Source: Candidatus Hodarchaeota archaeon
GTDB taxonomy: Archaea; Asgardarchaeota; Heimdallarchaeia; Hodarchaeales; Hodarchaeaceae
Direction: 5' to 3'
Length of the DNA: 22,574 bases
Assembly: GCA_016839815.1 (NCBI GenBank)
Contig: JAEOTM010000078.1
Span: 1-22,574, forward strand
Positions 3 to 20,250 of this stretch are shown here, one piece after another (position 1 is the stretch's first letter; each line of letters opens with the position of its first letter). Both the position numbers and the translations under genes were made by a program. The notes beneath the pieces were generated by a model. It saw only the letters and a list, made by a program, of their open reading frames with translations, was not told the origin of the DNA and ran no database searches.

Positions 3-149
3 ATCCCTGAGCATCTCTATGATCGTGGTTTAAAACATCTTTATGCTGAGTTAGAAAAACATAACGTTGATCTTTCTAAAAGGGTGGAATTACCAGCATA
101 TGCCCATTTCTTGGTTTTTACTCCCCCAACGGGATCAACACTTTGTTAA
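3..149 (+). CDS. 3' end of a CDS entering from outside the window (product unknown)
   Basis: Frame +3 is open from the window edge to TAA at 147-149: IPEHLYDRGLKHLYAELEKHNVDLSKRVELPAYAHFLVFTPPTGSTLC*. It stops 7 nt from the convergent next gene. Too short to assign a function. Confidence 0.6.
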   Translation: MPEHLYDRGLKHLYAELEKHNVDLSKRVELPAYAHFLVFTPPTGSTLC

Positions 150-156
150 CTAACGT

Positions 157-900
157 TTAGGTCTCATCAGAGGGTTTTTGAGGAGAATAAAGAAAGGTTT
201 TTTCATATAGAGTCCAGGTAGCTGCAAAAATAGCACCGAGTGTATAAATAACAATTGTCCAACTGAAAATATTTAGAATAGGTAATAGAATCGGGTACAG
301 TACAAGGATAATCCAGAAGATATACACATTTCCAAAAGAAACTACTCTGGGTTCATCGAGAATATAGTTTCCCCATACAGCCATCAATGCCACCCATCGT
401 TCAGCTCCATACATTAGGAATAACATAAACCAAATATTTAGTGGGCCAAATTCCCAAGAATCGAATGTGAGAGTAAATTGCATACTGCCTGCAGAAGCTT
501 GAATATGCAATCCAAGTGCCAAGAAGAAGATATACCCTTTTCCTTCTTCGAGAACACTATCTAACCATTCTCCATTCTTAGTGGAGGCATTCCGTAAACG
601 TGCCAGCATTCCATCTAATGAATCGACATATGCTGCAAACCAGTAGCTAAATCCAACTAGAAAGAGCAAAATTATATTATTTTCTGCCACAATCAGTAAT
701 CCTGCACCAAGAATAACAAATGCAAATCCAAACCACGTTAATCGGTTTGGTGTGATAAATGCATAGGGTTCAAGTCGAGATACAACAGGCCTAGCGAGTG
801 CTCGATAGAATCTAACTGTAATATCTTCTTTTTTGTAATCTTGTGATGAATCTTTCTCATCAAATGACTGTCCACGAGCTAAAATGCGTTGAAGTGACAT
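157..900 (-). CDS. CDP-alcohol phosphatidyltransferase family protein
   Basis: TPNxLT motif (ITPNRLT) and the signature DxxDGxxAR...GxxxDxxx(D/E) as DSLDGMLARLRNASTKNGEWLDSVLE. Several TM helices. GAGGAG RBS upstream. Confidence 0.9.
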   Translation of the reverse strand: MSLQRILARGQSFDEKDSSQDYKKEDITVRFYRALARPVVSRLEPYAFITPNRLTWFGFAFVILGAGLLIVAENNIILLFLVGFSYWFAAYVDSLDGMLARLRNASTKNGEWLDSVLEEGKGYIFFLALGLHIQASAGSMQFTLTFDSWEFGPLNIWFMLFLMYGAERWVALMAVWGNYILDEPRVVSFGNVYIFWIILVLYPILLPILNIFSWTIVIYTLGAIFAATWTLYEKTFLYSPQKPSDET

Positions 901-907
901 GGGATTC

Positions 908-928
908 TCCTCTTTCGACGAAAGAGGA
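908..928. promoter_or_regulatory. Perfect 10-bp inverted repeat overlapping the RBS of the CDP-alcohol phosphotransferase gene
   Basis: TCCTCTTTCG-A-CGAAAGAGGA in the divergent intergenic region, 7 nt upstream of the minus-strand ATG at 900. Confidence 0.55.
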
Positions 929-992
929 AATAAAATGGAATAATAAATAATACTTGTGAAGACTTGAATTTCACATAAAGAATAACAACATA

Positions 993-2222
993 ATGAGTAC
1001 CAGAATCTTTGATGGTATCAGTATGTTAGAAGAGGATATTCAGTCTAATAACGAAGAATCGGATTCTGAAGTCGAATCTACCCCCCCTCAGCTAGTGAGT
1101 GAGTTTGATAAAGAGCGGAGAGAATTAGCATTGTCTTATACAAGAGCTTCAAGACGATTTGGTTTTAAGATGACGATAGTTTCTCTTTTCGTATCATTTA
1201 TTCTTCTTATTTCCAAGATCACGGTTGAACTAGAGCGAGTTATTAGTCTCCATGTTTCAGACAATCCTTTCGTTATTGTTGGACTTTTCTTCCTGATTTC
1301 TTTCCTTGTTATTACCATTGTGGAACTTCCCATCGCTTATTACACTTTTTCACAATATTCACGCAAGTATGGACTCGTAATACTATCAAATAGACGTTGG
1401 ATAAAACGTCAGATTAAGGGAGATTTTATCAGCATTCTACTTGGACTTATCCTCATTGAAGGTTTTTATTGGATTTTAAGAGCATTTCCTGATTCTTGGT
1501 GGATCCTAGGAACTGTGGCACTATTATTGTTTTCTTTGATCTTAGGGAGTATTGTACCGATATTGATTCTCCCAAGATTTTACAAATTCACAGCATTACA
1601 TGATTCTCACCCCGAGTTAGCAACCGAAGTTCTTCAGATGGTCGAAACTCTGGAAGTTAAAACCACTAAAGTATTAAACTGGCATCTAGGGGAAGTAGCA
1701 ACTGTTGGAAATGCGGGGTTAATGGGATTTGGATCAACACGAAGAATAGTGATTGCTGATACAATGCTTGAACGATATACTCCAGAAGAAATCAAATGGG
1801 TATTATTACATGAAATCGCTCATTTCAAACATCGTGATTTATGGAGACAAATTTTTCTTAGTATTCTCACCACAATTGGATTATTTTTTCTGACTCATAA
1901 TCTTTTCTCACCTATTGCCGAACTCTTCGGCTATCCACTAGACATTTCATCTATTGGAACTTTACCTGTACTTGGATTCATCTTCTTCATAATTAATTCA
2001 ATATTATTCAATGTTCCTTCACTTGCTTATTCTCGTAAACGAGAAGCGGCAGCAGATGCGTTTGCATCGGCTTATATGAATGACCCTTCCATTACCACAA
2101 GTCTGTTCATCAAGATGGCTGATCAAAATCTCGCAGATATCGATCCTCCGTGGTGGGAGAAATATTTCTTTTTATCACACCCTCCTATCATAGAAAGAAT
2201 GGGACAAAGTGACGATCAGTAA
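993..2222 (+). CDS. M48 family zinc metalloprotease, Ste24/CAAX prenyl protease-like
   Basis: HEIAH (HExxH), SRKREAAADAFA, SHPPIIER and NAGLMGFGSTRRIVIADTML motifs, with a multi-TM N-terminal M48_N-like region. The start could be the ATG at 1023. Confidence 0.92.
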   Translation: MSTRIFDGISMLEEDIQSNNEESDSEVESTPPQLVSEFDKERRELALSYTRASRRFGFKMTIVSLFVSFILLISKITVELERVISLHVSDNPFVIVGLFFLISFLVITIVELPIAYYTFSQYSRKYGLVILSNRRWIKRQIKGDFISILLGLILIEGFYWILRAFPDSWWILGTVALLLFSLILGSIVPILILPRFYKFTALHDSHPELATEVLQMVETLEVKTTKVLNWHLGEVATVGNAGLMGFGSTRRIVIADTMLERYTPEEIKWVLLHEIAHFKHRDLWRQIFLSILTTIGLFFLTHNLFSPIAELFGYPLDISSIGTLPVLGFIFFIINSILFNVPSLAYSRKREAAADAFASAYMNDPSITTSLFIKMADQNLADIDPPWWEKYFFLSHPPIIERMGQSDDQ

Positions 2223-2277
2223 AAATAGCAGTGAAGACGAAACAGGAACGTTTGTGAAAGAAAATACATATTAGATT

Positions 2278-3414
2278 TTATGAAATCTGTTCAAAAAACT
2301 TACGGAGAGAGGTTTGTGTGAATGCTCGTGGGTTATTTTTGAGACGATCTATGTTTATATGTTTATTAATACGTTCCCAATTGGTGTTTAAATCAATGTT
2401 TAGATCACCTAAAGAACTCATTAGATTTAAGCTTGACATTAAATCAGTTATTACATCCTTCGCTGATGTTTCATTCTTGGCTCCAAGAAGGCCATAAAGT
2501 GCTTTAAGAGTATCTTGGACGTATTGAATCCCTCTTGGATCATTAAGATCTTCATCTGATACTTTACTATTAAAAAGTAATAATTCACCAATGGAGAGAC
2601 TTACAGCATGGCCATGGGGGATTCCAAAATAAGTAGTAAAAGGATAAGAGAATGCATGAGCAGCTGTTGTTTTCGTAAAATTAATAGCTTTTCCAGCAAG
2701 ATGAGCTGCTTGGGCTAATCCAAAGCGTCCCTCGGGTTTAGGACTAATAAAAGTTGTTTGTAAATACTCTAGCACTAGTTTGATAGCTTTAGACGCATAT
2801 TTTTTAGACTCGGGAGTTGAATGGATACTCCAATAGGATTCAATGGCTTGACATAATGCATCCATTCCAGAAGATGCGGTAATCGATGGAGGTAATCCCA
2901 GAGTCAAGTTGGGGTCAACAATTGAGACCGAGGGAAGTATGTTCTTATCAGCTAGGGAATATTTTATTTTATCGATGTAAACAACCGCAAAATGAGTCGC
3001 TTCACTTCCAGAACCTGCTGTAGTAGGTATAGCTACTAGAGGAATAGGTTTTTTCTGGAAAGATAAATTTTCTTGTATGTATTTCTCTGGGGATTCTGGT
3101 TGAGGGGCTAAGCTAGTAATTAACTTTGCCATATCAATAACACTACCTCCGCCGATTGCTAATGATACATCAATTGATTGTTGATGATATAATTCAATAC
3201 CGTTATTGACATCCTCAAGCTGGGGGTTTTGTTGAAAGTCCTGAAATTGAATAAACGAATAAGAATCCTTCAGTTTGGAAATATAGTCTTTTGCACCTGA
3301 AGACTGAAAGGATTGTTTACCTGTAACCAGAAAAACATTTTTTGCATGAAATGATTTCAGAATCGGATCTAGCTGGGAAAGCGTCTCAAACCCCATAATT
3401 TCTTGCTGCTTCAT
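2278..3414 (-). CDS. Phosphonoacetaldehyde reductase (iron-containing alcohol dehydrogenase, PhpC/FomC-like)
   Basis: GGGSVIDMAK, PTTAGSGSEATHFAV, DALCQAIESYWS, TTAAHAFSYP and PHGHA motifs. Last gene of the pepM-ppd operon, 1 nt from the upstream stop. Confidence 0.88.
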   Translation of the reverse strand: MKQQEIMGFETLSQLDPILKSFHAKNVFLVTGKQSFQSSGAKDYISKLKDSYSFIQFQDFQQNPQLEDVNNGIELYHQQSIDVSLAIGGGSVIDMAKLITSLAPQPESPEKYIQENLSFQKKPIPLVAIPTTAGSGSEATHFAVVYIDKIKYSLADKNILPSVSIVDPNLTLGLPPSITASSGMDALCQAIESYWSIHSTPESKKYASKAIKLVLEYLQTTFISPKPEGRFGLAQAAHLAGKAINFTKTTAAHAFSYPFTTYFGIPHGHAVSLSIGELLLFNSKVSDEDLNDPRGIQYVQDTLKALYGLLGAKNETSAKDVITDLMSSLNLMSSLGDLNIDLNTNWERINKHINIDRLKNNPRAFTQTSLRKFFEQIS

Positions 3415-3415
3415 A

Positions 3416-4138
3416 TCATTTCCTCGTGGAAATCCAAGTTCGGGCGACTTCTAGATCTTCAGGAGTGTCAATCTCCATACAAAACTCTTGGGTATAATAA
3501 AATGGGAATAAAAGTAATTCGTTCGCAATTTTATTGAAGGCATCTTCCGCATACACTGAGGTAATCCCTACATCAATGAATGCTCTGATTTCGTGTTTCC
3601 ACTGCAGGAAGGAGTTCTCTGACAGTTTATATAAGGGCATCAGAGTAAAACAATTTGAATCGAAGATATTTACTCCAATTTCTGTGATCCGGTCATCAAT
3701 AACGCGGCCCTTGAAATCTTTTTCAGATTGAGGTAGTTCTTTATTTAAAAGAACACAATTTTCGAATTGCGAAGAAAGGAGTTCACTAAATAAACTCTCT
3801 TCAACAATTAAATCACCATGTAGAAGAAGGAGATTGCCTTCAATCTCTCGGTTAGGAATTAAATAAATCGAATAAATATAATTAGTGGTTGAATATTGAG
3901 GATTATAGAAAAAATTCACTTTTAGATCGGGATACTGTTTTTTAATGTGTTCTTTAATTTGATCTGGGAAAGGACCCGTTGTAACTATTAATTCATCAAT
4001 ATTGTATTTAAGAAGGAGCTTGATTTGAAAATCCAAAATAGTTTCAGTCTTGGTTAATGGTACCATGCATTTTGGGGAGTGCAGAGTAAACTCACCCATC
4101 CGATTTCCAATTCCTGAATTCAGGATGATTGCTTTCAT
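3416..4138 (-). CDS. NTP transferase, LicC/PntC-like phosphocholine/phosphonate cytidylyltransferase
   Basis: MKAIILNSGIGNRM...PKC, NPQYSTTNYIYS, LHGDL and MEIDTPEDL motifs. Embedded in the phosphonate operon. Confidence 0.85.
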   Translation of the reverse strand: MKAIILNSGIGNRMGEFTLHSPKCMVPLTKTETILDFQIKLLLKYNIDELIVTTGPFPDQIKEHIKKQYPDLKVNFFYNPQYSTTNYIYSIYLIPNREIEGNLLLLHGDLIVEESLFSELLSSQFENCVLLNKELPQSEKDFKGRVIDDRITEIGVNIFDSNCFTLMPLYKLSENSFLQWKHEIRAFIDVGITSVYAEDAFNKIANELLLFPFYYTQEFCMEIDTPEDLEVARTWISTRK

Positions 4139-4143
4139 AGTAT

Positions 4144-5268
4144 TTACGACCGAATGTAATCCATAAATTCCCGTTTATTCTGAACTGGAGATGTTGTTGG
4201 CCTTCCTAATTCGGATCTTGATCCTTGATTAACTTTTATGGAGAAGAAATGGGGTCCATCTTCTTTTAACAACTTTTCTAATGTATCTTTAATCTCCTCT
4301 TGTGAAGAAACTTCATTTACTGTCGCATATCCACACGCTTGAGCAACTTGGGAAAAAGAGACATTTGAAGATACAGTGGGCTGACCCCCTGTTGACTCAT
4401 GACTTTCATTATCAAATAAAACATGAATAAGATTTTTAGGTTTGTAAAATCCAATTGTAGCTAGTGTACCCATTTGCATTAGGAGAGATCCATCCCCATC
4501 CAGGACTATAAATTGTTTAGATGGTTTTTGAATAGATGCACCAAGAGCAATAGCTGAAGCACAGCCCATCCCTCCCACCGTGTAAAAATCATGTGGGGTT
4601 TCTCCAAGAGCAACCCGATATTCAAATAGCTCCCGTGAAGTTTTTCCTGTTGTAGAAATAATAACTTCTGAATTTGATAAATTCTCTACAATTGTTTTTA
4701 ATGCATCTTCTCTCCTTATAGTATACTGAGGTTCTATTACTTGTTGATAGTTTGGATCGTTAATTATCCCTCTAGGGACAATTAATGCGACTGGACGCTG
4801 TTGTCTAGTAGCTTTTAAAATTAAAGAGCCAATTAAATGCTTAGAATCCTTGATACTTGTCGTGAGTATTTCATATGGTATTCCCAATAATTCTAGTAAA
4901 GAAAGAGTAATTTTTCCCATTTTCTTATGCTGTGGTTCATCACTTTTTCCAGGTTGGCCTCTCCAACCAATCATCAACAACATTGGGATTGAATAGACTT
5001 CAGGATCACATAAAGATGTTAGAGGATTCACTGTTTTTCCTTCCCCTGCATTCTGCATATAGACAACTCCGATCTTAGTTGTTGCTAGATGATATCCTGT
5101 TGCTATTGCAATAGCTTCACACTCATTGCTAGCAATTACGTTCGATAGCTCAGAATCTGGTGAGCGATCAAGAAAGACCATCCAATCTTTGAATGTGGAA
5201 TCAGGAATACCTGTAAAAAATGTAAGATCTTCTGCCTTGAAAAGATTCCAGAGATCCTCACAGTCCAT
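4144..5268 (-). CDS. aepY: Phosphonopyruvate decarboxylase (ThDP-dependent)
   Basis: FFTGIPDS, IGWRGQPGKSDEPQH, STTGKTSRELFE, DGDGSLLM...N and HESTGGQPT motifs. The ATG at 5268 overlaps the pepM TGA (TGATG) with a GGAGGAG RBS; the ORF track's TTG start at 5271 is less likely. Confidence 0.93.
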   Translation of the reverse strand: MDCEDLWNLFKAEDLTFFTGIPDSTFKDWMVFLDRSPDSELSNVIASNECEAIAIATGYHLATTKIGVVYMQNAGEGKTVNPLTSLCDPEVYSIPMLLMIGWRGQPGKSDEPQHKKMGKITLSLLELLGIPYEILTTSIKDSKHLIGSLILKATRQQRPVALIVPRGIINDPNYQQVIEPQYTIRREDALKTIVENLSNSEVIISTTGKTSRELFEYRVALGETPHDFYTVGGMGCASAIALGASIQKPSKQFIVLDGDGSLLMQMGTLATIGFYKPKNLIHVLFDNESHESTGGQPTVSSNVSFSQVAQACGYATVNEVSSQEEIKDTLEKLLKEDGPHFFSIKVNQGSRSELGRPTTSPVQNKREFMDYIRS

Positions 5269-6581
5269 CAAGTATCTCCTCCAGGAATTAAATGCAATAT
5301 TTCACTAATTGGCATACAATCCTCATTGGTTTCATAGGATCGTTCATTAGATAGAATTGATTTAGCCGTTTTAACCATTGAAGGATAACTACTACGTAAG
5401 AGATGGTTGGCATAGATTACGATCCTGACTCCTGCGTCGGATAATTCCTTTTCAGTGATTTGATTATACGTTGTGGGTACTACGACTAATGGTACCTTCG
5501 TTTCAAACTTTGAATAAAGGTTACAAAATTCCAATATTTCTTGCGGACTTTTTTGCTTACTATGTATCATTATTGCGTCAGAACCCGCTTCAATATAGGC
5601 TTTGGCTCGTGTAATGGCATCTTCCATTCCCGCCTCCAAAATCAGACTTTCAATCCGAGCAATGATCATGAAAAAACGTGTTACCTGTGCTTTCTTGCCT
5701 TTAGAAATCTTCGTACAGAAGTGCTCAATAGTATCTTGGGTTTGGACAACTTCAGTTCCCAGTAAGGAATTCTTTTTGAGTCCAGTTTTATCCTCTATGA
5801 TTATTGCAGAGACTCCTAATCGTTCAAGAGTCTTAACCATAAAGATAAAATGTTCAATATGACCTCCAGAATCTCCATCGATAATCACAGGCTTTGTGGT
5901 AACATCTAATATCTCATTAATGGTCGTTAGCCGAGATGTAAAATCTACATAACCAATATCAGGTTTTCCTTTAGCTATAGAATCTGTAAGACTACTTATC
6001 CAAGTAGCATCAAATTCTCTTATCTGTTTTCCTTTCGGGACGGAGGTATTTTCCACGATAAGGCCTGTTAGTCCATTATGGGCTTCTAATACCCGAATCA
6101 GAGGTTTAACTTCAAGAAGTCGACACATAAGTTGCATTCGCATTTCAGGGGTGGTTCCAAGTTCCTGAATCCGCAATCTTAGAGAAGATGATGATAATCC
6201 TTGAGTATAAGGAGGTTCAATCAGCTCTCCCCCATAACTTGCGAGAAAATCCACTACTTCTTGCCTTATTCCTTGCAGTGGGCCCATTTTCCAATCATCC
6301 CCGTGCACTACATAATCAGGGCAAATTTTCTTTAAATTGGTAAGATATCCCACCTCATTTTGGGTTATGACTTTCTTTACACCTTTAATATTTTCTGCAA
6401 TAACTTTTCTTTGTTCAAATGTCAGAATTGGTAATCGTTTATATTTCACGATAGCCTCATCAGTCATCAGGCCAATAATTACATCTCCAAGTTCACGAGC
6501 CTTATTAATTATATTTAAGTGACCTGGATGGATAAAATCTGCACTTAATCCAACATATACGGTTTTTTTCGAGACTACCAT
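5268..6581 (-). CDS. pepM: Phosphoenolpyruvate mutase with N-terminal HxGH cytidylyltransferase domain (Fom1-like architecture)
   Basis: Diagnostic EDKx5NS motif (EDKTGLKKNS), plus EAHNGL, DGDSGG, IARIES and IYANH. N-terminal ADFIHPGH...VHGDDW...SSS CyTase domain. Confidence 0.96.
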   Translation of the reverse strand: MVVSKKTVYVGLSADFIHPGHLNIINKARELGDVIIGLMTDEAIVKYKRLPILTFEQRKVIAENIKGVKKVITQNEVGYLTNLKKICPDYVVHGDDWKMGPLQGIRQEVVDFLASYGGELIEPPYTQGLSSSSLRLRIQELGTTPEMRMQLMCRLLEVKPLIRVLEAHNGLTGLIVENTSVPKGKQIREFDATWISSLTDSIAKGKPDIGYVDFTSRLTTINEILDVTTKPVIIDGDSGGHIEHFIFMVKTLERLGVSAIIIEDKTGLKKNSLLGTEVVQTQDTIEHFCTKISKGKKAQVTRFFMIIARIESLILEAGMEDAITRAKAYIEAGSDAIMIHSKQKSPQEILEFCNLYSKFETKVPLVVVPTTYNQITEKELSDAGVRIVIYANHLLRSSYPSMVKTAKSILSNERSYETNEDCMPISEILHLIPGGDT

Positions 6582-6723
6582 TTTTTTTCCTACTCAAAAT
6601 TCACTTTTTCCCAGTTAAAAGAGAATTCAGTTTAAATTGTTAATTTTTCTCTCTCAGAATAAATTACATCTTGAAATGTATTGGTATCTAAGAAGTCGAT
6701 CTGATTTGAAGTGAATTCTGATT

Positions 6724-7491
6724 TTAACTTAGAATATTCATTACATATAAAATATCAGCATCCTCAATCATAACAAAAATCCTCCTGATGTAAAATAAAA
6801 CGAAAATTGCCATAGGGGGGCCTAAAGTTCCAGAAATGGGGATGAGTAGAGGCCAGAAGTCAATTTCTGTAATTACTAATAAGATGAAGAATGAAGCATC
6901 AAATATGGAACCAAAAAACATCACTATAGCTAAAATTGTGAAGGCAAAAATAAAGCTTCTATCTTTATCTGTCAGATCTGATTCATTTAATACTGTATAA
7001 CTACGTAAACAGATTCGAAATAAAAGGATACTTGCAAGTACAATGGGTACCCCATAGGCAATTAGGGCAAGTATCCCGAAATGTGGATCAGATGCAGGGA
7101 GAGTTGCCAGAAGAAAAGAAATTCCAACCATGATCCCAAAAACAAAAGGGATATATTTCTCCCACAAGTTCCTGCGATTAATGTAGGTGGTAAGATAATA
7201 CAGACTAATTTCAAGGTATAATGGGGTAAATATAAGTCCAAGAAAATGCTCTATCATGAAATCAACTGTTTGTTTATCTTCTAACACAAGTACTAGCCAA
7301 CTAATAAAAATTAAATAAGCTATCAGTCCGAAACAGAGCATAGATAAATGAAATAATGCTTCCTCCCTAAGGTTAATCCAAATTCTAAAAAACTTAATTC
7401 CTCCCGCAAGGAAAATACCTGTAAAAATGAGTAAGGAAATGAAAGTGGAAATTCTTAAGACGGGGTTTATGAGACCAAATATATCAGTCAT
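6724..7491 (-). CDS. Uncharacterised 7-transmembrane protein
   Basis: Seven hydrophobic segments by eye (about aa 15-36, 45-70, 83-103, 113-131, 138-162, 180-207, 212-235). ATGA overlap with the upstream RHH gene. Confidence 0.8.
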   Translation of the reverse strand: MTDIFGLINPVLRISTFISLLIFTGIFLAGGIKFFRIWINLREEALFHLSMLCFGLIAYLIFISWLVLVLEDKQTVDFMIEHFLGLIFTPLYLEISLYYLTTYINRRNLWEKYIPFVFGIMVGISFLLATLPASDPHFGILALIAYGVPIVLASILLFRICLRSYTVLNESDLTDKDRSFIFAFTILAIVMFFGSIFDASFFILLVITEIDFWPLLIPISGTLGPPMAIFVLFYIRRIFVMIEDADILYVMNILS

Positions 7492-7670
7492 ATTTCTTCA
7501 CCAAATTCCTCCGTAATCTTTCTTCCATATTCTTTTACCCATTCGTGAATTTTTTCTTGAAGCACATAGGAACAGAGAACCGAAGGCCGTAATTTAGTCA
7601 ATTTGGACAATCGCTCAATCTCATGGAGTACTTCCAATGGAAGTCGAATTGTAATTGTTGAAGTCTTCAA
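7488..7670 (-). CDS. Ribbon-helix-helix (CopG-like) DNA-binding protein
   Basis: N-terminal alternating beta-strand TSTITIRLP, then helix (EVLHEIERLSK), turn and helix (PSVLCSYVLQEKI). TTG start preceded by AGGT. Confidence 0.7.
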   Translation of the reverse strand: MKTSTITIRLPLEVLHEIERLSKLTKLRPSVLCSYVLQEKIHEWVKEYGRKITEEFGEEI

Positions 7671-7704
7671 TAAGGATTACCTACCAAGAACGATAAATAG
7701 CTGA

Positions 7705-7736
7705 GTATACAGTGTGCACAGGGATTTTTAATTAAA
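7705..7736 (-). promoter_or_regulatory. Putative TATA box with tandem palindromic operator boxes upstream of the RHH gene
   Basis: TTTAATTAAA at 7727-7736, GTATAC at 7705-7710 and TGTGCACA at 7713-7720. Confidence 0.4.
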
Positions 7737-7825
7737 TTTGTATGTGATACTCTCATCCTTCCTTTCTGTACAGACAGTATTTTGGTGTTAAAATGACGAT
7801 CCGACGTACTCCATCAATCATCACT

Positions 7826-9844
7826 ATGAATAAATTATTCTTAATTCTTCTTTGTCTTTCAATACTTGTACCACTACAGATAAATGAAAACCAGCTTTCA
7901 GAATTATCTTCCAATGTCTTCTCTGAAGTGAATGTAAATTCAAAGATGGAAAGTACGACTGGACGTGTGGTCATCGAAGATACTATCCTCCCAAAGACAA
8001 ACTTAACCGTATCACAGTATATTTCGGGTCAAGGACAGGTAAATACGTATAGTACATCGGTGCTATCCCTGAATAATACGCATTGGTTTACTCGTTCGTA
8101 TTATGCAAACACAAGTGCAATTACTTCACCTTTTGATTCACTAATCCAAAGAGATAGTGTAAATCACAGTTATTCCACATCAAATTATTGGAATTGGGAT
8201 GAACTTCCAGATGGACCATTTGATTTTTGGATTGATCCTACTGGTTTTTCAATTGATTATATTTATTCAGTATACATCCAGGGGTATGGATATCGTGATG
8301 CCACAATCGTTGGGTTAGAAAACATCACCATGACTGGAGTAGGAACCTTTGAAGCTTGGAATATCACCATTGATTTTCCAGGTTTTCCAAATTTTGCGTT
8401 TTATGAAAAAAATACTGGATTTGCTTTGTGTACTTATTTGGAGTTTATTGGCGATATCTGGTATAACCTAACGTTAGCAGAGATAGCTGTTCTCTCTGGT
8501 GGATACGATGGTCCTGTTTTAGACAATTTCTCTCCTGTTAATTCTTCAATACTAGCGTCTGGGTCAGTGGTCTCAGTATCAATGGCTTCTCCTTATGGAG
8601 TTTTCCAGATTCAATATTCATGGGATGGAGGTACAGTGACCGCTTTGAGTGCTACTGATTTTCAAACGTTTTTACCTGAACTAGATGGTTTGCACAACCT
8701 ATCTGTTATAGTAACAGATAATATTGGTTATTCGATCTCCTTCTTACTTGAGTATACTACGGATAACACATTACCTGGAATAATTCTGAACGATCCTCAA
8801 AATAATAGTAGAATTCAAGGCACAAGAGAACTGAATTTTTCAATAGTATCAGGAAATGGAACCTTTACTTATAACTGGGATTATGGTCCTGTCAATGTAA
8901 GTTTTCTAATGAGTGGAGAAAATGCTGTTTTATCCATTCCTTCACCAGAGGTGGAGTCTGAGCGAAGTCTGAGAATATACATCAAGAGTAACGTAACTGA
9001 TATATGGATAACCAGTATTTATAAGTTTATCATTGATAATACTCCACCAGATATTACTATCTACAGTTTTGAGAATAATTCAGTAATAAAAGGGGATTTT
9101 TGGGTGATTTTTTCTCCAACAGAGAATGTGAACGCATCGTACTTCCTGAATGGAGTTTTTGTAGATTCTTCGATTGTTGAAGAGAATACAAATTCCTCGC
9201 TAATTTTCAATGATCTTGATAATGGAACTTATGGAGTAGAACTTATTCTAGAAGATGAAGCGGGGAATACATATAGCATCACATTAAAATTTTCTATATA
9301 TACAAGTGCTTTTAATTGGAATTGGCATCTTAATGCAAATCAAGCACATTCTTACGATTTCATTGATGATACTGGGGCTCAATGGTTCTCATTTGTGATT
9401 GTTTCAGCGAGTGAACAGTCGTTTAATATTTCGCTACTCCCAAATCCTGGTTCTCCTTCGTTAACAACACAGATGGAGTTTGGAATCGATCTTCTGTGTG
9501 AGGTTCCAGAAGACATCGTCTATGTTACTTTCACATATCTCTTATCCGAACCTTTACTTGATGAGAATCAGAGTTTTCCAGTTTTCCATTGGAATGTCTG
9601 GGATGATCAAAACCTAAAATGGTCTGAATCAGATACAATCTATAATCAGGTTCTTCACGCATGGGTAACCACTTCAATTGGTTATCATCAGTATTTTGCG
9701 CTTGTTGATGCTGATAAGAGTACTCATCTAAAATCTGTTGTAGTAGGGGGAGGTCAATTACCCTCATTTGACGTAATATTAGTTCTTTTATCAATAAGTA
9801 TCGTTTATGTATATAATCGTAAAAGAAAACAAAAGAATAAGTGA
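7826..9844 (+). CDS. Cell-surface glycoprotein with Ig-like repeats and a C-terminal membrane anchor/sorting signal
   Basis: Signal peptide MNKLFLILLCLSILV (start at 7826 preferred over 7793). Ig-like repeats with YSWD/YNWD, V..TD..G and DNTLP/DNTPP. About 21 N-x-S/T sequons. Ends LPSFD-hydrophobic helix-RKRKQKNK. Confidence 0.8.
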   Translation: MNKLFLILLCLSILVPLQINENQLSELSSNVFSEVNVNSKMESTTGRVVIEDTILPKTNLTVSQYISGQGQVNTYSTSVLSLNNTHWFTRSYYANTSAITSPFDSLIQRDSVNHSYSTSNYWNWDELPDGPFDFWIDPTGFSIDYIYSVYIQGYGYRDATIVGLENITMTGVGTFEAWNITIDFPGFPNFAFYEKNTGFALCTYLEFIGDIWYNLTLAEIAVLSGGYDGPVLDNFSPVNSSILASGSVVSVSMASPYGVFQIQYSWDGGTVTALSATDFQTFLPELDGLHNLSVIVTDNIGYSISFLLEYTTDNTLPGIILNDPQNNSRIQGTRELNFSIVSGNGTFTYNWDYGPVNVSFLMSGENAVLSIPSPEVESERSLRIYIKSNVTDIWITSIYKFIIDNTPPDITIYSFENNSVIKGDFWVIFSPTENVNASYFLNGVFVDSSIVEENTNSSLIFNDLDNGTYGVELILEDEAGNTYSITLKFSIYTSAFNWNWHLNANQAHSYDFIDDTGAQWFSFVIVSASEQSFNISLLPNPGSPSLTTQMEFGIDLLCEVPEDIVYVTFTYLLSEPLLDENQSFPVFHWNVWDDQNLKWSESDTIYNQVLHAWVTTSIGYHQYFALVDADKSTHLKSVVVGGGQLPSFDVILVLLSISIVYVYNRKRKQKNK

Positions 9845-10251
9845 AAAAAATGTCTATGAAACGAATCGAATATGAAGATGCAACAATTGTACTTCGCCTA
9901 ATCGCATTACTAGTTGATATTGTGATTGGAGTCATTCTTGCATTTTTAATGGATTTTGGATGGAGACTTGAATATGATATTTTTTGGTCGAAAATATTTA
10001 ACTTAGAAGGAGAAGCAATGTCTTTAGTTGTCCTCTGGTTCATTATTGCCCTTCCGATATATCATATCTTAATATCTAGCTTGACGAATGGTCAATCTGC
10101 TGGTAAACTAATTCTTGGTATTAGAGTTGTCACCGACTCGAATGAATCGACCAAGAGGATGTTTATTATTCACTTTAAACGCTTTTTCTTCCTTAAAGGA
10201 GGTACAAAAGTCGTTAAAGAAATTGATCCATCCGTAAAAGGGTTAGTATAA
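9841..10251 (+). CDS. RDD family membrane protein (short form)
   Basis: RLIALLVD, GQSAGKLILGIRVV and GTKVV motifs. GTGA overlap with the upstream stop; alternative ATG starts lie a few codons later. Confidence 0.85.
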   Translation: MKKMSMKRIEYEDATIVLRLIALLVDIVIGVILAFLMDFGWRLEYDIFWSKIFNLEGEAMSLVVLWFIIALPIYHILISSLTNGQSAGKLILGIRVVTDSNESTKRMFIIHFKRFFFLKGGTKVVKEIDPSVKGLV

Positions 10252-10286
10252 CCCTAGAAGTTCTGTAAACGAGAGATGAATCTACA

Positions 10287-11039
10287 GTGGAAATAGCGGA
10301 ACAGAAAAATCGAGTTTCACTTGAAGGGATGGTTACCCTTGAAAACGTCAGTCGTGTGTATAAGATGGGAGATCACAATATCCAAGCCTTAAAGGATATT
10401 AATTTATCGTTAGAGACTGGAAAACTAATTATAGTCTTAGGGCCATCTGGATCGGGTAAAACAACCCTTCTAAATGTGCTTGGGGCAATTGATAAATGTG
10501 ATGGGATTATTAAAATTGGTAATTTAGAAATTACACGGCTGAATAAGAAACAGTTAACTAAATATCGACGACAAAAATGTGGATTCATCTTTCAATTTTT
10601 TAACCTGCTTCCTGTATTTAATGCACTCGAAAACGTTGAATATGCCCTAGAATTAGCCTCTAAATTATCTCGAAAAGAGGTAACAAATCGTGCGACAGAA
10701 TATTTACGCAAAGTAGGACTCTATGAAAAACGTTTCCATTTTCCTTCTCAATTATCTGGTGGAGAACAACAACGAGTTGCAGCAGCTCGAGCTATGGCGA
10801 AAAATCCTGAGTTACTTCTTTGTGATGAACCGACAGGAGAATTATCTGTTAAAGAGGGAAAACAGGTGTTAACTGCTATCCAAAATATAGTAAAGGAGCG
10901 ATCTGATGTAATGACAGTACTAGTTACTCATAATCAAAAAATCGCACAAATTGGGGATGTAGTTATCCGTTTACGTTCTGGTGAGGTTGATTCGATAGAG
11001 GAGCAAATTCCGATCCCAGCAGAGCAATTATCATGGTAA
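10287..11039 (+). CDS. ABC transporter ATP-binding protein, LolD/MacB type (variant D-loop)
   Basis: [37 protein letters not shown] and VTHN motifs. Confidence 0.95.
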   Translation: MEIAEQKNRVSLEGMVTLENVSRVYKMGDHNIQALKDINLSLETGKLIIVLGPSGSGKTTLLNVLGAIDKCDGIIKIGNLEITRLNKKQLTKYRRQKCGFIFQFFNLLPVFNALENVEYALELASKLSRKEVTNRATEYLRKVGLYEKRFHFPSQLSGGEQQRVAAARAMAKNPELLLCDEPTGELSVKEGKQVLTAIQNIVKERSDVMTVLVTHNQKIAQIGDVVIRLRSGEVDSIEEQIPIPAEQLSW

Positions 11040-11052
11040 AAAGTGAATAAGA

Positions 11053-13587
11053 ATGGCAAAAACAGTTAAGAACATTTATAGGGCAATTAACGCAAACAAA
11101 ATTCGCTTATTAACCATCGCAATGGTTATCGCAATTGGTATTACCTCATTCAATGGGATGATAACAGCTTTTGTCCATATGACACGGACGTACGATACCG
11201 CGTTTGATGAGCATAATATGGCTTCCTTTACACTACAAACTGCGAATCCTGGAGGAACTGGAGAAGATGCATGGATTGATTATAACAATTTAACAAGTTT
11301 TCTTAAAGAATTTCAAGAGCAGGAGACGCGGGTTAGAGCGTTTGAACTTAGAATTGTTTATAACACAATCTTTGAGATACGTGGTGAACAACAAAATGGC
11401 CAAATCGTAGCTATGAATACTCTCGATTCTCAGGGTAATCATCGTGAACAGCCTGACGTGAATGGGTATAGAATTCTCTCTGGAATGCCATTCTCTCCCT
11501 TAAGTCAATACCAAAATGTATGCCTTGTGGAAGCTCATCTCGCAGAATACTGGAAATTAGATCCCAAAGAGTTTATTGCGATTGGGGATTCCAAAATACC
11601 ATTTGAAATTGTTGGTGTAATCGGTTCTCCTGAATATTTAATCAATCAAGGTTCATATGCAGACATCATGCCCAGTCCACGCCGTTTTGGAGTGGTATTT
11701 TTACCTTTAACAGCGGCACAGAATATATTGGGTGTTTATGGAAAAGTAAATGAGATTTCAGTTTTACTTGAGGATGGGCTATCCAAAAACAGTCGTGAGA
11801 AAATTGCTGATGAGCTGAAACAGTTCCTTGAGGCCACACACGATCTCAAAATGGGTGCCCCAGTAGATATTGACAATCAACCATCTTATTGGTTGTTACG
11901 ATTAGATATTGAGGAAGCTAGAGAGTTTGGAATTGTGCTTCCAATCATTATTTTAGGTATGGCAATTGGAGGATTATATGTATTACTAAGTAGAATGGTT
12001 GTCGCTGAAAGAAAAGATATTGGTGTTGCTCAAGCCCTTGGATATGATAGAAGAACTATTATCCTGCAGTATCTAGGTATTTCTATGGTCATTGCTATTG
12101 TTGGAACGATTATAGGTACGCTACTAGGACTGTGGTTCTTAAGTTATTTCAGTCCTCTTTATGTTGACATGCTTACGATACCATTCGACCCTGAAGTTAC
12201 TATAGAATGGCCCATAGTTATTGCTGGTGTTATTATAGGAATTTTAACCGGTTTAGTAGGTGGGTACTTCCCAGTTCGAGGATCTATTCAACCTCTTCCA
12301 GCTGAGAGTCTTCGTTTTGATCCTTCACTTCATATTACAACAGGAAAAGTCCCCCTGATTGAACGAGTCCTGAATAAGCTTAGAATTACCCCACGTGTTA
12401 CAGGTTTGAGACTTCCCTTACGCAATTTCTTCCGAAGCAAACGAAGAACTTTTTCCTCTGTATTCGCTATTATTGTTTCAGTCTCTCTAATTTCCATGGC
12501 CTTTGGTATGATAGAGTCCATGGATGAATCCTTAACTTTTTATTATGAGGTTTCAGAAGATTGGGATCTTCGGGTCGATTTTTCAGAAATACCAACAAAT
12601 GCATCACAGATTGCTCGTGCGATTAAACATAATATTGCAGGTGTCACAGATGTGACTTATCACCTATTATCTGGGGCGAGTGTTACTTCTTCTGAATCAA
12701 CTGAGAGTAAACAAGTCAGTGTAATTGGAATGAATGATTCAGATGGGTATTTAGGCCATACTTTCGACTTTGAGTCTGGAGGGTGGGATCCAGATGGAAT
12801 CATCATTTCTGTTCCAGTTGCAGAGGCCTTGAACGTCGGATTAAATGATGAAGTATCTTTAGAACTTCCAAAACTGACAAAATTGGTTTCTACTACACCA
12901 TTACGAGCTCATTTTGAACTTGTGAATGTTTCGTTCCAAATTTCTGGCATTATTGATGAATTTAACGGATTAAATGCGTTTGTTGGTTTGGAGAATTTAG
13001 TCAAGGAAAGTAATTTTCCTGGAGAACCTGCAAATACCATTCTAATAAAAGTTGAGAATCCCACTCCTGAGCGTTTAGAGCTAATACGAGAACAAATTAA
13101 AGAAAATTACAGTTATAATATTCGAAATATTGCCACAAAAGCTGAACAGAAGAATGAATTACTAGAGTTAATGGATTTATTGTATAATATTATATATTTC
13201 GTTGCTATTTTTGCTGTTATTCTCTCTTGTGCCATTGTTTACAATACTATCTATATTAGTTTGCAGGAACAACAACGAGAAATTGCTACTTTGCTTACAA
13301 TCGGAACTAATAATAGAAAGTTAATACGAAATATCACAGTGGAAAATTTCGTTATTACACTCGTTGGGACTATTTTTGGATTAATTTTAGGGTGGATTAT
13401 GTTATGGTTCTTCATGAGAGTTATACTCGACATGGAATTTTTCCGGATTAAGCTTTTCATTAGTAATAATACAATTATTACCAGTTTTGTCTTGACCTAC
13501 ATTGGGGTTCTAGTTGCACAATTCTTTCCTTTACGTAAAGCCTTGAATCTGAATCTTGCTGAAGCTACAAAGGAGCGTGTAGTGTAG
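11053..13587 (+). CDS. ABC transporter permease, duplicated FtsX/MacB (type VII) architecture
   Basis: Two halves, each TM - large extracytoplasmic domain - three TMs, with coupling motifs ERKDIGVAQALG and EQQREIATLLTIG. Confidence 0.93.
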   Translation: MAKTVKNIYRAINANKIRLLTIAMVIAIGITSFNGMITAFVHMTRTYDTAFDEHNMASFTLQTANPGGTGEDAWIDYNNLTSFLKEFQEQETRVRAFELRIVYNTIFEIRGEQQNGQIVAMNTLDSQGNHREQPDVNGYRILSGMPFSPLSQYQNVCLVEAHLAEYWKLDPKEFIAIGDSKIPFEIVGVIGSPEYLINQGSYADIMPSPRRFGVVFLPLTAAQNILGVYGKVNEISVLLEDGLSKNSREKIADELKQFLEATHDLKMGAPVDIDNQPSYWLLRLDIEEAREFGIVLPIIILGMAIGGLYVLLSRMVVAERKDIGVAQALGYDRRTIILQYLGISMVIAIVGTIIGTLLGLWFLSYFSPLYVDMLTIPFDPEVTIEWPIVIAGVIIGILTGLVGGYFPVRGSIQPLPAESLRFDPSLHITTGKVPLIERVLNKLRITPRVTGLRLPLRNFFRSKRRTFSSVFAIIVSVSLISMAFGMIESMDESLTFYYEVSEDWDLRVDFSEIPTNASQIARAIKHNIAGVTDVTYHLLSGASVTSSESTESKQVSVIGMNDSDGYLGHTFDFESGGWDPDGIIISVPVAEALNVGLNDEVSLELPKLTKLVSTTPLRAHFELVNVSFQISGIIDEFNGLNAFVGLENLVKESNFPGEPANTILIKVENPTPERLELIREQIKENYSYNIRNIATKAEQKNELLELMDLLYNIIYFVAIFAVILSCAIVYNTIYISLQEQQREIATLLTIGTNNRKLIRNITVENFVITLVGTIFGLILGWIMLWFFMRVILDMEFFRIKLFISNNTIITSFVLTYIGVLVAQFFPLRKALNLNLAEATKERVV

Positions 13588-13598
13588 GAGGAACAATC

Positions 13599-14342
13599 AT
13601 GGCATTTATTGAGATTTCAAATTTATCGAAAGTGTATTCGTTAGGGGAAACAAAGACTCTAGCACTCAATGGTGTTGATTTAGAAATTGATAAAGGAGAA
13701 TTAGTCATTTTTTATGGTCCATCAGGTGCTGGTAAAACAACTCTTCTGAATATGATTGGGGGATTAGATATCCCCAATTCAGGCACCGTTGTGGTTGATG
13801 AAATTCCTGTTTCAACTCTTTCTGCAAAATGGTTAACTACTTATAGAAGGAAAAAGATTGGAGTGGTTTTTCAATTCTTCAATCTAATTTCTAGATTGAA
13901 TGCGCTTGAGAATATTGAGTATGCTATTGATCTTATTGGTGTTAAACAATCGAACGGGAAACCGTCTTTCAATAGCAAGATTATACGACAGAAAGCTCAG
14001 GAATATCTTGAAAAAGTTGGATTAAAGGATCGGATGCATCACTTCCCTGCGCAGCTTAGTGGAGGTGAGCAACAACGCGTTTCAATTGCGCGTGCTCTCG
14101 CTAAAGAACCAGAAATATTACTAGCAGATGAACCGACAGGAAACCTGGACTATGCGATTGGACGCGAGGTTCTTGAAATAATGGAGGCTATGACTGGAAA
14201 AGCGCAGAATCGCACCGTAATAATTGTGACACATAATCCAGCTATTTGTCCCCTTGGTGACCGAGTGGTACGACTATCTGATGGAAAAGTTGTAGAGAAC
14301 TATACACAAAAATACACTTCTGCTAAGGAACTCTATTGGTGA
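13599..14342 (+). CDS. ABC transporter ATP-binding protein, LolD/MacB type
   Basis: [28 protein letters not shown] and VTHN motifs. AGGAGG RBS. Confidence 0.95.
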
Positions 14343-14408
14343 TTTTCGTATCAAAATCATCTAAAATGAAGGAGAAAAATTCTTCTTAAAGAGCTATAAG
14401 TGTTAATT

Positions 14409-15077
14409 ATGGCAAGAAGATCAATAAAGATTACACCAAAGGATGCAGGAAGCGAAAATTCTACAAATCTTGAGAAGTACGACGATGTACTAAATTCTTT
14501 GGAATCAATCCAGACAAAACGTAAAGTAGCTGCATCTACAAATGGTGTTGCTGGACCTGCAGTCAAACCTACTACCCTGATTATGGCTATTGTGGTAGTT
14601 GGGATTGCAGCAACGTTGCTACTTACTTTTGGAGCAGATCCTTCCACATTTGGCCCTACTGTGGAAACCTCGGATCTCGATGATTTAGATTTTGAAATTC
14701 AACTTTTGGATTCTACACGGTTGATGCTTTCAGACTATGCAGGTCAACCAATTATTTTGGATTTATTTGCCACATGGTGCCAACCATGTATAACTCAAAT
14801 TGCTGAGTTGCAGAAACTACAGGCTAAACATCCAAATGTTCATATTCTGTCAGTTTCGATTGAATCTGATGACACTATCCCCGTTTTACAATTATTTTCC
14901 TCACAACATGGCATGGATTGGGTAGTCGGACGTGATGTAACAGAAAAAGGTACCTCACTCTTCCAAGTGACATCAATTCCCACTATGGCATTCTTCAATA
15001 GTCAGGGTATCTTAAAACATCATGATTCGGGGATTCAGACTGAAGAAACTATGAGTAACTGGATTAAAGAAAATTAA
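14409..15077 (+). CDS. Membrane-anchored TlpA/ResA-like thiol-disulfide oxidoreductase
   Basis: Single TM, then LSDYAGQPIILDLFATWCQPC (CxxC) and cis-Pro SIPT. The ATG at 14409 is preferred over the GTG at 14400. Confidence 0.9.
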   Translation: MARRSIKITPKDAGSENSTNLEKYDDVLNSLESIQTKRKVAASTNGVAGPAVKPTTLIMAIVVVGIAATLLLTFGADPSTFGPTVETSDLDDLDFEIQLLDSTRLMLSDYAGQPIILDLFATWCQPCITQIAELQKLQAKHPNVHILSVSIESDDTIPVLQLFSSQHGMDWVVGRDVTEKGTSLFQVTSIPTMAFFNSQGILKHHDSGIQTEETMSNWIKEN

Positions 15078-15102
15078 TAACACCAAATACAAAGGGACTT
15101 TC

Positions 15103-15867
15103 ATGTATATTTTCGGTATAGAACTTGATAATTCCCTTGGCTTGCCTTTATTTTTCCTAGCAGGAATCTATGTAGCTTTATCTCCGTGTTTATTCCCTAT
15201 TATGCCAATGACCATATTTCGTATCATGAGTAAGGATATAATAGATTCAGAGGGAAAGGAAACTCATCCTTCACGCCAACTTGCTTTACGCTGGGTAAGT
15301 ATTTTAGTAAGTGGAATACTTATTACATTTATTTCAGTGGCACTCATCCTAATGTATCTTTGGAGCGGGATTGGAACGGAAATTCTTTTGCTTTATGGGG
15401 AATTTACATTCATACTGGGATTAGTCTTGATTGCAATGGGAATCTTCATCATTTTTCCAGCTTTATCAGAAAGAACTTTTGCCCGTATTCCTATCCCCAT
15501 GCAGATTTCAAATCTGATGGCTCGTGAAGAGTATAAACAATTAGATCTATTTCTTATTGGTTTTGGGTATTCTTTTATTGCCTTACCATGTGCGTTTCCC
15601 GTTTTTCTGGCCTTATTGACGATAATAATTTCAACCGCAAATCCAATTTTTACATTGATTGGATTATCACTTTTTGGGATTGGTTTGTTTATCCCCTACT
15701 TGATTCTTGTTTTTGTTACAGCTGAAGCAAGAATACGAGCAGCCCGTGTGTTAGCTGAACGATTTAGAATAGTAGAAATCATTACTGGAGTAGTAATAAT
15801 ACTATTTGGCATTTTGTTCCTTTTACCTGCTTTTGGGGGTCCACGCTTGTTCGTGTTATCAGGTTAG
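15103..15867 (+). CDS. ccdA: CcdA/DsbD transmembrane electron transporter
   Basis: Two PC motifs (LSPCLFPIMP, LPCAFP), six TMs, GIGLFIPY. Adjacent to TlpA. Confidence 0.9.
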   Translation: MYIFGIELDNSLGLPLFFLAGIYVALSPCLFPIMPMTIFRIMSKDIIDSEGKETHPSRQLALRWVSILVSGILITFISVALILMYLWSGIGTEILLLYGEFTFILGLVLIAMGIFIIFPALSERTFARIPIPMQISNLMAREEYKQLDLFLIGFGYSFIALPCAFPVFLALLTIIISTANPIFTLIGLSLFGIGLFIPYLILVFVTAEARIRAARVLAERFRIVEIITGVVIILFGILFLLPAFGGPRLFVLSG

Positions 15868-15878
15868 TTCTTAGTAGC

Positions 15879-17039: not shown

Positions 17040-17490
17040 TAAAAAGGTCTCTCTCCAGCAATAGTAAAATTAAGTTCATAATGATTTGTTATACGAATTA
17101 AGTGGTAGTAGACAGTGCTATCAATGACTTGACAATTATTTTTTATTTCAATTATAGTATAGCTTATAGCCTGAATATCGTTTCTTGGGCCGTATTTTTT
17201 CCTATGCTTAATCTTATCTTAGGCTTTATATACTCCTCCTTATCACTGATAAAAAAGGTTTTTGTGATTTTCATCCAGGTCTCGACCTATATTTTTGCAC
17301 ACCGATTAAATTCAATATATGGCCAACTGTAAAGAGAGTCTTAAAGTCCAAATAGCATCTTCTCCTCACTATTCAGTAGAATAATGATTTAACAGAACAA
17401 AAATTCCAAATTCTCTGGATCAGTTAAATTTATCCACCCATGAATAAGTTGATTTCTGACTTTTAGAACAAATTTAACGGTGGGATTCTG

Positions 17491-20213: not shown

Positions 20214-20250
20214 CTGAATCCACTTAGAATATGACGTAAGAGTGGTTCAG
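20214..20250. terminator. Imperfect hairpin between convergent genes
   Basis: CTGAA(T)CCACT...AGTGGTTCAG pair with a one-base bulge and span the whole gap between the two stop codons. No U-tract. Confidence 0.25.

Follow-up and report, generated by a model that had tools for sequence, protein, structure and literature searches.

A predicted operon for 2-hydroxyethylphosphonate in the genome of a Heimdall-class Asgard archaeon

INTRODUCTION

Can Asgard archaea build carbon-phosphorus (C-P) bonds, by which route would they do so, and where would the product go? These questions are raised by a single contig of a Candidatus Hodarchaeota metagenome-assembled genome (MAG; assembly GCA_016839815.1, contig JAEOTM010000078.1, our contig C19). 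We analyzed the entire contig, 22,574 bp, and refer to it as the window. Its minus strand carries four adjoining genes for a phosphoenolpyruvate (PEP) mutase (PepM), a phosphonopyruvate decarboxylase (Ppd), a nucleotidyltransferase (NT), and an iron-type alcohol dehydrogenase (Fe-ADH). An earlier note on this DNA, made from the letters of the sequence, had proposed that these genes lead from PEP through phosphonopyruvate and phosphonoacetaldehyde to 2-hydroxyethylphosphonate (HEP). Here, we report that the four genes form an operon in a small chromosomal island and that this operon probably makes HEP and its cytidine monophosphate derivative, CMP-HEP, for transfer to an acceptor.

Phosphonate gene clusters have been cataloged across prokaryotes. 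Nucleotidyltransferases occur in two-thirds of phosphonate clusters, 23.6% of Ppm proteins carry a fused PF01467 domain, and LicC-type nucleotidyltransferases are common neighbors (Rice et al. 2019, PMC6697681). According to Li and Horsman (2022, PMC8942020), neighborhoods of the HEP type with a PhpC enzyme make up 8.5% of all those cataloged, and 1.6% of RefSeq archaea have Ppm. That inventory covers RefSeq genomes, includes only 12 archaeal neighborhoods, and does not discuss Asgard archaea. In a survey of cold seeps, six archaeal phyla were reported to have phosphonate clusters (PMC11051675), and phnWX catabolism has been described in Asgardarchaeota (PMC12106651). Our literature search on Asgard archaea and phosphonates returned general surveys and no study of Asgard phosphonate synthesis.

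RESULTS

Four coupled genes form the operon

The operon consists of four intact, co-directional open reading frames (ORFs) on the minus strand, with spacings of -1, 5, and 1 nt. The earlier note had described the same genes and gaps, and both the ORF list and the junction sequence agree with it. The ORF list gives the second frame as 4144-5271 and the other three as in Table 1. At the first junction, which reads TTGATGG, the PepM stop codon TGA (5270-5268) shares 1 nt with an in-frame ATG (5268-5266). Because the stop overlaps this ATG, which lies just behind a GGAGGAG box, we place the start of Ppd there. Homologous loci in two other assemblies, L027 and L028, have the same Ppd length and the same 1-nt overlap. 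Upstream of the operon, an A/T-rich TTTAAA box lies inside the leader, about 50 nt before the PepM ATG. An Rfam search gave no family match in the leader or the island. A scan for sigma-70 promoters and terminators performed no better than on shuffled sequence, and its model is not applicable to archaea.

None of the window ORFs encodes a class-V aminotransferase, a cupin dioxygenase, a radical-SAM enzyme, or another tailoring function, in line with the earlier report of a cluster that lacks AepZ and MpnS/HEPD. The window ORFs likewise include no Fom3-, Fom4-, or FomD-type gene and no MpnS/HEPD-type dioxygenase, the search for the latter having covered the window. Because the window has no such dioxygenase, HEP rather than methylphosphonate is the predicted end phosphonate.

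The first protein joins a PEP mutase to a Fom1-type cytidylyltransferase

We compared the PepM protein with curated family models and with solved structures. It scored 396.1 bits on TIGR02320, the PEP mutase equivalog, versus a cut-off of 319.55. Its score on the next model, phosphonopyruvate hydrolase, was 142 bits versus a cut-off of 374, and methylisocitrate lyase was also far lower. The Ppm-specific EDKxxxxxNS motif is present as EDKTGLKKNS at residues 263-272, as the earlier note had read it, and alignment to Mytilus PepM (1m1b) shows that the equivalents of D58, D85, D87, E114, K120, N122, S123, R159, and H190 are kept. The protein is not a non-mutase lyase of the isocitrate lyase (ICL) family, a possibility that the earlier note had allowed for, since it passes the cut-off for PEP mutases and scores far lower on the models for phosphonopyruvate hydrolase and methylisocitrate lyase.

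The PEP mutase domain occupies residues 154-434 of the 437-aa protein. The earlier note named all four gene families correctly; however, it overlooked a second domain at the PepM N-terminus, a PF01467 cytidylyltransferase (CyTase) domain at residues 5-140 (Pfam match 14-135) with an HxGH motif, HPGH, at residue 18. This domain matches the CyTase structure of Fom1 (5x3d) with an E value of 6e-48 and 165 bits over 136 residues. The N-terminal domain of Fom1 converts HEP to CMP-HEP in fosfomycin biosynthesis (Cho et al. 2017, via PMC6697681), and the N-terminal domain of the window protein is predicted to cytidylylate HEP in the same way. Because PepM carries this Fom1-type domain, the predicted end product extends beyond HEP to CMP-2-hydroxyethylphosphonate.

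Ppd and an alcohol dehydrogenase of a PepM-linked subfamily would complete the route to HEP

The second protein matches TIGR03297 over its full length with 446.2 bits versus a cut-off of 312.5, and its thiamine diphosphate (ThDP) motif, GDG-x26-DNE, begins at residue 258. Sequence tests of this kind identify PepM, its CyTase domain, and Ppd.

The fourth protein has the group III fold of iron-type alcohol dehydrogenases and matches PF00465 and PF25137 (ADH_Fe_C). Its motifs include GGGS at residue 88 and a metal site made up of D185, Q189, H253, and H267. The change from His to Gln at the second metal ligand (DxxxQ) is common to almost all PepM-linked alcohol dehydrogenases (ADHs) and is also found in 6jko. 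Of 53 loci from bacteria, DPANN archaea, and Asgard archaea, about 35 have a homolog with 32 to 61% identity next to PepM-Ppd; the loci found by our contig scan were bacterial and DPANN, with identities of ≤65%, and the Asgard loci were added from a search of Asgard genomes. The name given by NCBI to homologs with 48 to 49% identity, in Hodarchaeales, Promethearchaeota, Pacearchaeota, and Woesearchaeota, is phosphonoacetaldehyde reductase. In a nanoarchaeal protein of 522 aa (P0190), a PF01467 CyTase domain is fused to a PepM-linked Fe-ADH, a fusion that links HEP formation to HEP cytidylylation. We infer that the window Fe-ADH is a phosphonoacetaldehyde reductase that makes HEP.

Taken together, the operon would act as follows. 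The PepM domain would convert PEP to phosphonopyruvate, and Ppd would convert phosphonopyruvate to phosphonoacetaldehyde, a decarboxylation expected to pull the unfavorable PepM step forward. The Fe-ADH would reduce phosphonoacetaldehyde to HEP, and the CyTase domain would combine HEP with cytidine triphosphate to give CMP-HEP. The path from PEP to HEP is the one that the earlier note had drawn; PepM and Ppd pass their cut-offs with catalytic motifs, and the ADH belongs to a subfamily linked to PepM and Ppd.

TABLE 1 Features of the window and the basis of each assignment
Feature	Position	Strand	Basis
Fom1-type bifunctional CyTase-PepM, 437 aa	5268-6581	-	TIGR02320, PF01467, match to 5x3d
Phosphonopyruvate decarboxylase (Ppd), 374 aa	4144-5268	-	TIGR03297, ThDP motif
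Stand-alone LicC/PntC-like nucleotidyltransferase (NT), 240 aa	3416-4138	-	PF00483, PF12804
Iron-type alcohol dehydrogenase (Fe-ADH), 378 aa, predicted phosphonoacetaldehyde reductase	2278-3414	-	PF00465, PF25137
Operon leader, 142 nt, putative archaeal promoter	6582-6723	-	Read from sequence
Island limits relative to same-genus genomes	2203-6722	.	Flank contiguity in G002, G020, G018
CDP-alcohol phosphatidyltransferase paralog, candidate CMP-HEP user only	157-900	-	PF01066, 32.5 bits

The stand-alone nucleotidyltransferase may serve a second activation step

The third protein matches PF00483 (NTP_transferase) and PF12804 (NTP_transf_3) and has an N-terminal GxGxR nucleotide loop, NSGIGNRMG, at residues 7-15. 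A public gene call for it (P0241) is 227 aa long and lacks this loop; the homologs align to the entire 240-aa frame beginning at 4138. Among solved structures, the protein is most similar to LicC (1jyk, E 9e-10) and PntC (6pd1, E 1.4e-5), with alignment only over the N-terminal 120 to 130 residues, and the substrate-binding half is too divergent from LicC and PntC to assign a pocket for 2-aminoethylphosphonate (AEP) or phosphocholine. Homologs with 45 to 63% identity are named as PepM-domain proteins, as members of the phosphocholine cytidylyltransferase family, or as sugar-phosphate nucleotidyltransferases. The Joint Genome Institute (JGI) often labels homologs "PEP phosphomutase," a label that presumably stems from similar NT domains fused to PepM in other organisms.

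The majority of the Asgard PepM loci that we examined have an NT homolog, those without one being mostly short or truncated, and the NT gene nearly always adjoins the ADH gene. None was found in the DPANN or bacterial loci examined, except for three Firmicutes loci. We read this protein as a second cytidylyltransferase, whose substrate may be either HEP or another head group. In one Asgard family (f20), the domain fused to PepM is of the LicC type, yet the free NT is still present, which suggests that the two cytidylyltransferases serve two distinct activation steps.

The island has long been resident in an Asgard lineage

We searched the window against 21 other genomes of the same genus at the DNA level. 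Window positions 37-2202 and 6723-17107 are contiguous and syntenic in the sister species G002 at 75 to 76% DNA identity, and likewise in G020 and G018; in all, the flanks are syntenic with five same-genus genomes over a range of 73 to 78%. Where the window genome has 4.5 kb, the corresponding sites are empty, with 720 bp in G002, 336 bp in G020, and 46 bp in G018. The gap in G002 holds the broken relic of an ADH gene, in which residues 233-288 (80% amino acid identity) and 349-378 survive in two different frames and the remainder is gone. Read from these genome comparisons, a shared ancestor of this species and G002 evidently already had the island, which G002 has since lost by deletion. On a separate JGI metagenome contig (P0002), which encodes a PepM 83% identical to that of the window, the cassette lies directly downstream of a 255-aa gene that resembles window positions 6724-7491 by length and position only.

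The composition of the island is that of its surroundings. Its GC content is 0.370 versus 0.369 in the flanks, GC at third codon positions is 0.278 in both, and codon use correlates at 0.92; the contig as a whole has GC and tetranucleotide make-up typical of the bin. We looked for signs of a mobile element at the island and found no meaningful flanking direct or inverted repeats, no tRNA, no Rfam match, and no integrase among the ORFs.

Some features of the genome could point to bacterial contamination or an assembly chimera, with a cassette foreign to the Asgard genome. The MAG (4.24 Mb, 89.5% complete) has an estimated contamination of 7.8%, this genome is the only one among 41 relatives with a PepM over the cut-off, with none in the 21 other genomes of the genus, and PepM is 62 to 69% identical to bacterial and DPANN sequences. 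We consider this explanation extremely improbable, given the synteny of both sides of the island, the ADH pseudogene relic at the same site in G002, the independent contig with the cassette beside an upstream 255-aa gene of the same length and position, the composition and codon use equal to those of the flanks, and the Asgard affinity of the nearest Ppd and PepM relatives. Because the flanks are syntenic with same-genus genomes and the empty site holds an ADH relic, the contig is neither bacterial nor chimeric, which settles a doubt that the earlier note had itself voiced, and the island is a long-standing resident of this Asgard lineage. The host thus belongs to the Heimdall class of Asgard archaea, consistent with the Asgard-like archaeon that the earlier note had proposed; the genome also encodes an actin that scores 440 bits on the Pfam Actin model, plus two paralogs.

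The closest relatives of the island are in other Asgard genomes

PepM passes the curated cut-off in 42 of 400 Asgard genomes, representing 11 of 85 genera. Matches of about 120 bits in other relatives of the window genome are ICL-family paralogs. Asgard PepM proteins have one of two architectures, either a Fom1-like fusion of 435 to 442 aa or a PepM of 566 to 585 aa with a C-terminal NTP_transf_3 domain; the latter is found in family f20 (31 of 135 genomes; loci L093-L097, e.g., L096 826-2544). Most of the Asgard loci examined also have Ppd and ADH genes, in varying order. Two loci have the same four genes in the same order as the window: L027, at 73, 64, 56, and 61% identity, and L028, from a Hodarchaeales MAG, at 69, 58, 49, and 49%. 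L027 is from GCA_004196315.1, whose Asgard affinity is judged from its tree position only.

Quick maximum-likelihood trees of 39 to 58 sequences, built with short searches, show affinity and not the direction of transfer. In these trees, Ppd belongs to a clade of 13 sequences, all of them Asgard (SH-like approximate likelihood ratio test [SH-aLRT] 97), where its neighbors are L027 and a Hodarchaeales MAG. The clade that holds PepM (SH-aLRT 95) has only Asgard archaea among its named members and lies within DPANN sequences; other Asgard PepM proteins form a second clade apart from it. Judged by these alignments and trees, the closest relatives of the island are in other Asgard genomes. NCBI's pipeline already names cassette homologs in Asgard MAGs. 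The statement in the earlier note that such a system was not known to be characterized holds at the bench; however, the cassette type is cataloged and is common in Asgard genomes.

Weighing synthesis of CMP-HEP for transfer

CMP-HEP would be an activated donor, from which a phosphonyl transferase encoded elsewhere would place HEP on a surface glycan, lipid, or protein. In other PepM loci, transferases for CDP-activated head groups are found nearby: TagF-like proteins in 12 of 53 loci, CDP-alcohol phosphotransferases in 11, and LicD-like proteins in 7. Other cassette loci sit among genes of glycan or teichoic type, such as UDP-sugar dehydrogenases, glycosyltransferases, and flippases, and in several bacterial and DPANN loci a CDP-alcohol phosphotransferase gene directly follows the ADH gene.

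Several observations weigh against an operon that makes CMP-HEP for transfer. The best NCBIfam model for the ADH is TIGR03405 (PsrA), on which it scores 178 bits versus a cut-off of 423.7, and other Fe-ADH models are nearly equal, so the assignment of its substrate draws on gene context and the names of homologs. This miss does not exclude a reductase function, as the model was built for a related but different equivalog. The route gives no evident reason for two unrelated cytidylyltransferases in one cassette. The island is dispensable, because a sister species has lost it. No transferase gene is in the island; because of this, the envelope destination that the earlier note had favored can be put forward only tentatively. 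Searches of the 89.5%-complete genome for LicD (PF04991) and TagF-like (PF04464) proteins gave no match. Four CDP-alcohol phosphotransferase (PF01066) paralogs are encoded in the genome, and one of them, the 157-900 gene, is 1.4 kb from the island. Relatives without the island have kept this gene, and in a tree its product is placed not with cassette-linked transferases from other phyla but with a second paralog of the same genome and a Hodarchaeales gene.

The ADH score bears on an alternative in which reduction of the aldehyde to HEP does not take place. The ADH would then have another substrate, the product would be AEP or another derivative of phosphonoacetaldehyde, and the LicC-like enzyme would be a true PntC. 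Besides the distance of the ADH from the only phosphonate-linked NCBIfam cut-off, this alternative can draw on the preference of characterized PntC-type enzymes for AEP (PMC6697681) and on a class-V aminotransferase on another contig that scores 152 bits on the AepZ model. That score, the best in the genome, is far below the cut-off of 360.8 bits, and the gene is unlinked to the cassette; we rejected an AEP route on finding no AepZ or PhnW over the cut-off in the 89.5%-complete genome. In addition, the ADH subfamily is tied to PepM-Ppd across phyla, even to the point of fusion with a CyTase domain, and the CyTase fused to the window PepM is very close to the HEP-specific domain of Fom1. We therefore regard AEP or another derivative as an unlikely product.

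HEP may alternatively be a free, possibly exported, small phosphonate, with cytidylylation a passing step as in fosfomycin biosynthesis. Cytidylylation by Fom1 is transient (PMC6697681), the island has no transferase, and a gene for a major facilitator superfamily (MFS) transporter adjoins the cassette in Candidatus Lokiarchaeum ossiferum and precedes it in the Hodarchaeales MAG of locus L028 as well. Against this reading, the window has no Fom3-, Fom4-, or FomD-type or other tailoring gene, and many related loci are in glycan- or teichoic-type settings with LicD, TagF-like, or CDP-alcohol transferases. We judge this possibility to be about as unlikely as that of AEP.

The absence of an evident transferase, together with the deletion of the island in G002 and its absence from G020 and G018, could also mean that the island is a decaying remnant whose function has been lost in this species; among transferases, LicD and TagF-like proteins were searched for in the genome and no cognate was found. 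This is very unlikely, since the four frames are intact, the catalytic motifs and translational coupling are kept, and the same four genes are kept at 49 to 83% identity in several other species.

If CMP-HEP is made for transfer, a lipid is one conceivable acceptor. In Hodarchaeales, a CDP-alcohol phosphotransferase might use CMP-HEP in a Kennedy-like reaction, giving a phosphonate lipid head group and not a glycan; the LicC-like cytidylyltransferase would then activate a different partner. We hold this to be improbable, if slightly less so than the alternatives above, and keep it in consideration because no LicD or TagF-like protein was found, because the 157-900 gene is close to the island, and because a Hodarchaeales MAG (L029) has a gene 46% identical to it at a distance of 4 kb from its cassette. 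If true, close archaeal relatives of eukaryotes would combine a PF01467 cytidylyltransferase and a CDP-alcohol phosphotransferase, the kind of pair that eukaryotes use for phosphoethanolamine.

Other genes of the window

Several genes outside the island were noted in their own right. Between the island and the CDP-alcohol phosphotransferase gene lies a gene for a Ste24-like CAAX prenyl protease (993-2222, plus strand; Peptidase_M48_N and M48), which other genomes of the genus have kept; close to the cassette of a Hodarchaeales MAG are genes for an Rce1-like CAAX protease and a Ras/Arf GTPase. A MacB-type ABC exporter (10287-14342, plus strand) is composed of an ATPase, an 844-aa FtsX/MacB_PCD permease, and a second ATPase; no other stretch of the contig is as conserved within the genus, and its DNA identity is 65 to 77% in 21 of 21 genomes. 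Two proteins, of 683 aa (7793-9844, plus strand) and 386 aa (15879-17039, minus strand), belong to no Pfam or NCBIfam family; the former is 61 to 65% identical in same-genus genomes. The gene at 20247-22526 on the minus strand encodes an unusual fusion, 759 aa in length, of an M23 peptidase domain (residues 183-282) with a class-III aminotransferase (residues 352-752). This aminotransferase is not a class-V AEP transaminase, and its gene is 14 kb from the cassette.

DISCUSSION

The archaeon best known for making a phosphonate by a comparable beginning is Nitrosopumilus maritimus, whose methylphosphonate cluster, in work by Metcalf and colleagues in 2012, reportedly runs from PEP to HEP via PepM, Ppd, and an alcohol dehydrogenase. 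The window differs from that cluster in having no MpnS/HEPD-type dioxygenase.

The early steps of fosfomycin biosynthesis in Streptomyces wedmorensis are another parallel. They are carried out by Fom1 (CyTase-PepM), Fom2 (Ppd), and FomC (Fe-ADH), and the first protein has the same domain architecture as its window counterpart. The order of chemistry is also that predicted for the window: PEP, phosphonopyruvate, phosphonoacetaldehyde, HEP, and CMP-HEP. In contrast to the fosfomycin cluster, the window cassette has no Fom3, Fom4, or FomD, has an extra LicC-like NT, and belongs to an archaeal host. Fosfomycin itself is not expected from the window, because the genes of the Fom3, Fom4, and FomD types are missing.

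A further likeness is to the Pnt clusters with PntC (Rice et al. 2019, PMC6697681), in which, as predicted for the window, a phosphonate is activated with a nucleotidyl group so that it can be transferred to a surface molecule. For the characterized PntC enzymes, AEP is made by a transaminase, whereas the window has an alcohol dehydrogenase in that place and no LicD-type or other transferase in the island. The cassette also resembles the HEP branch of Li and Horsman (2022, PMC8942020), a neighborhood of Ppm, Ppd, and a PhpC-like Fe-ADH. It is therefore an ordinary further example of a widespread, cataloged type, and the chemistry itself is not new.

Among the Asgard genomes with a PepM over the cut-off is that of a cultured organism, Candidatus Lokiarchaeum ossiferum B35 (G137), whose description does not mention phosphonates. 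Its cassette has the same four functions as that of the window, with CyTase-PepM, Ppd, ADH, and NT at positions 6296-10656 of locus L088 (G137:C1:4923500-4943000). The gene order there is PepM-Ppd-ADH-NT, and the ADH is of a different lineage, with 32% identity to the window ADH. The full locus (6296-13277) adds a second NTP_transf_3 protein, divergently transcribed and with an N-terminal extension, as well as the MFS transporter. Because this cultured archaeon carries the same cassette, the prediction of HEP is open to a test at the bench.

What is specific to the window is the secure anchoring of the cassette in the Heimdall class, a history of gain and loss recorded by a relic, and a bare four-gene form without a transferase. 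More broadly, these data suggest that about one in ten Asgard genomes encodes C-P bond synthesis, mostly by way of an HEP cassette with an Asgard-specific lineage of Ppd.

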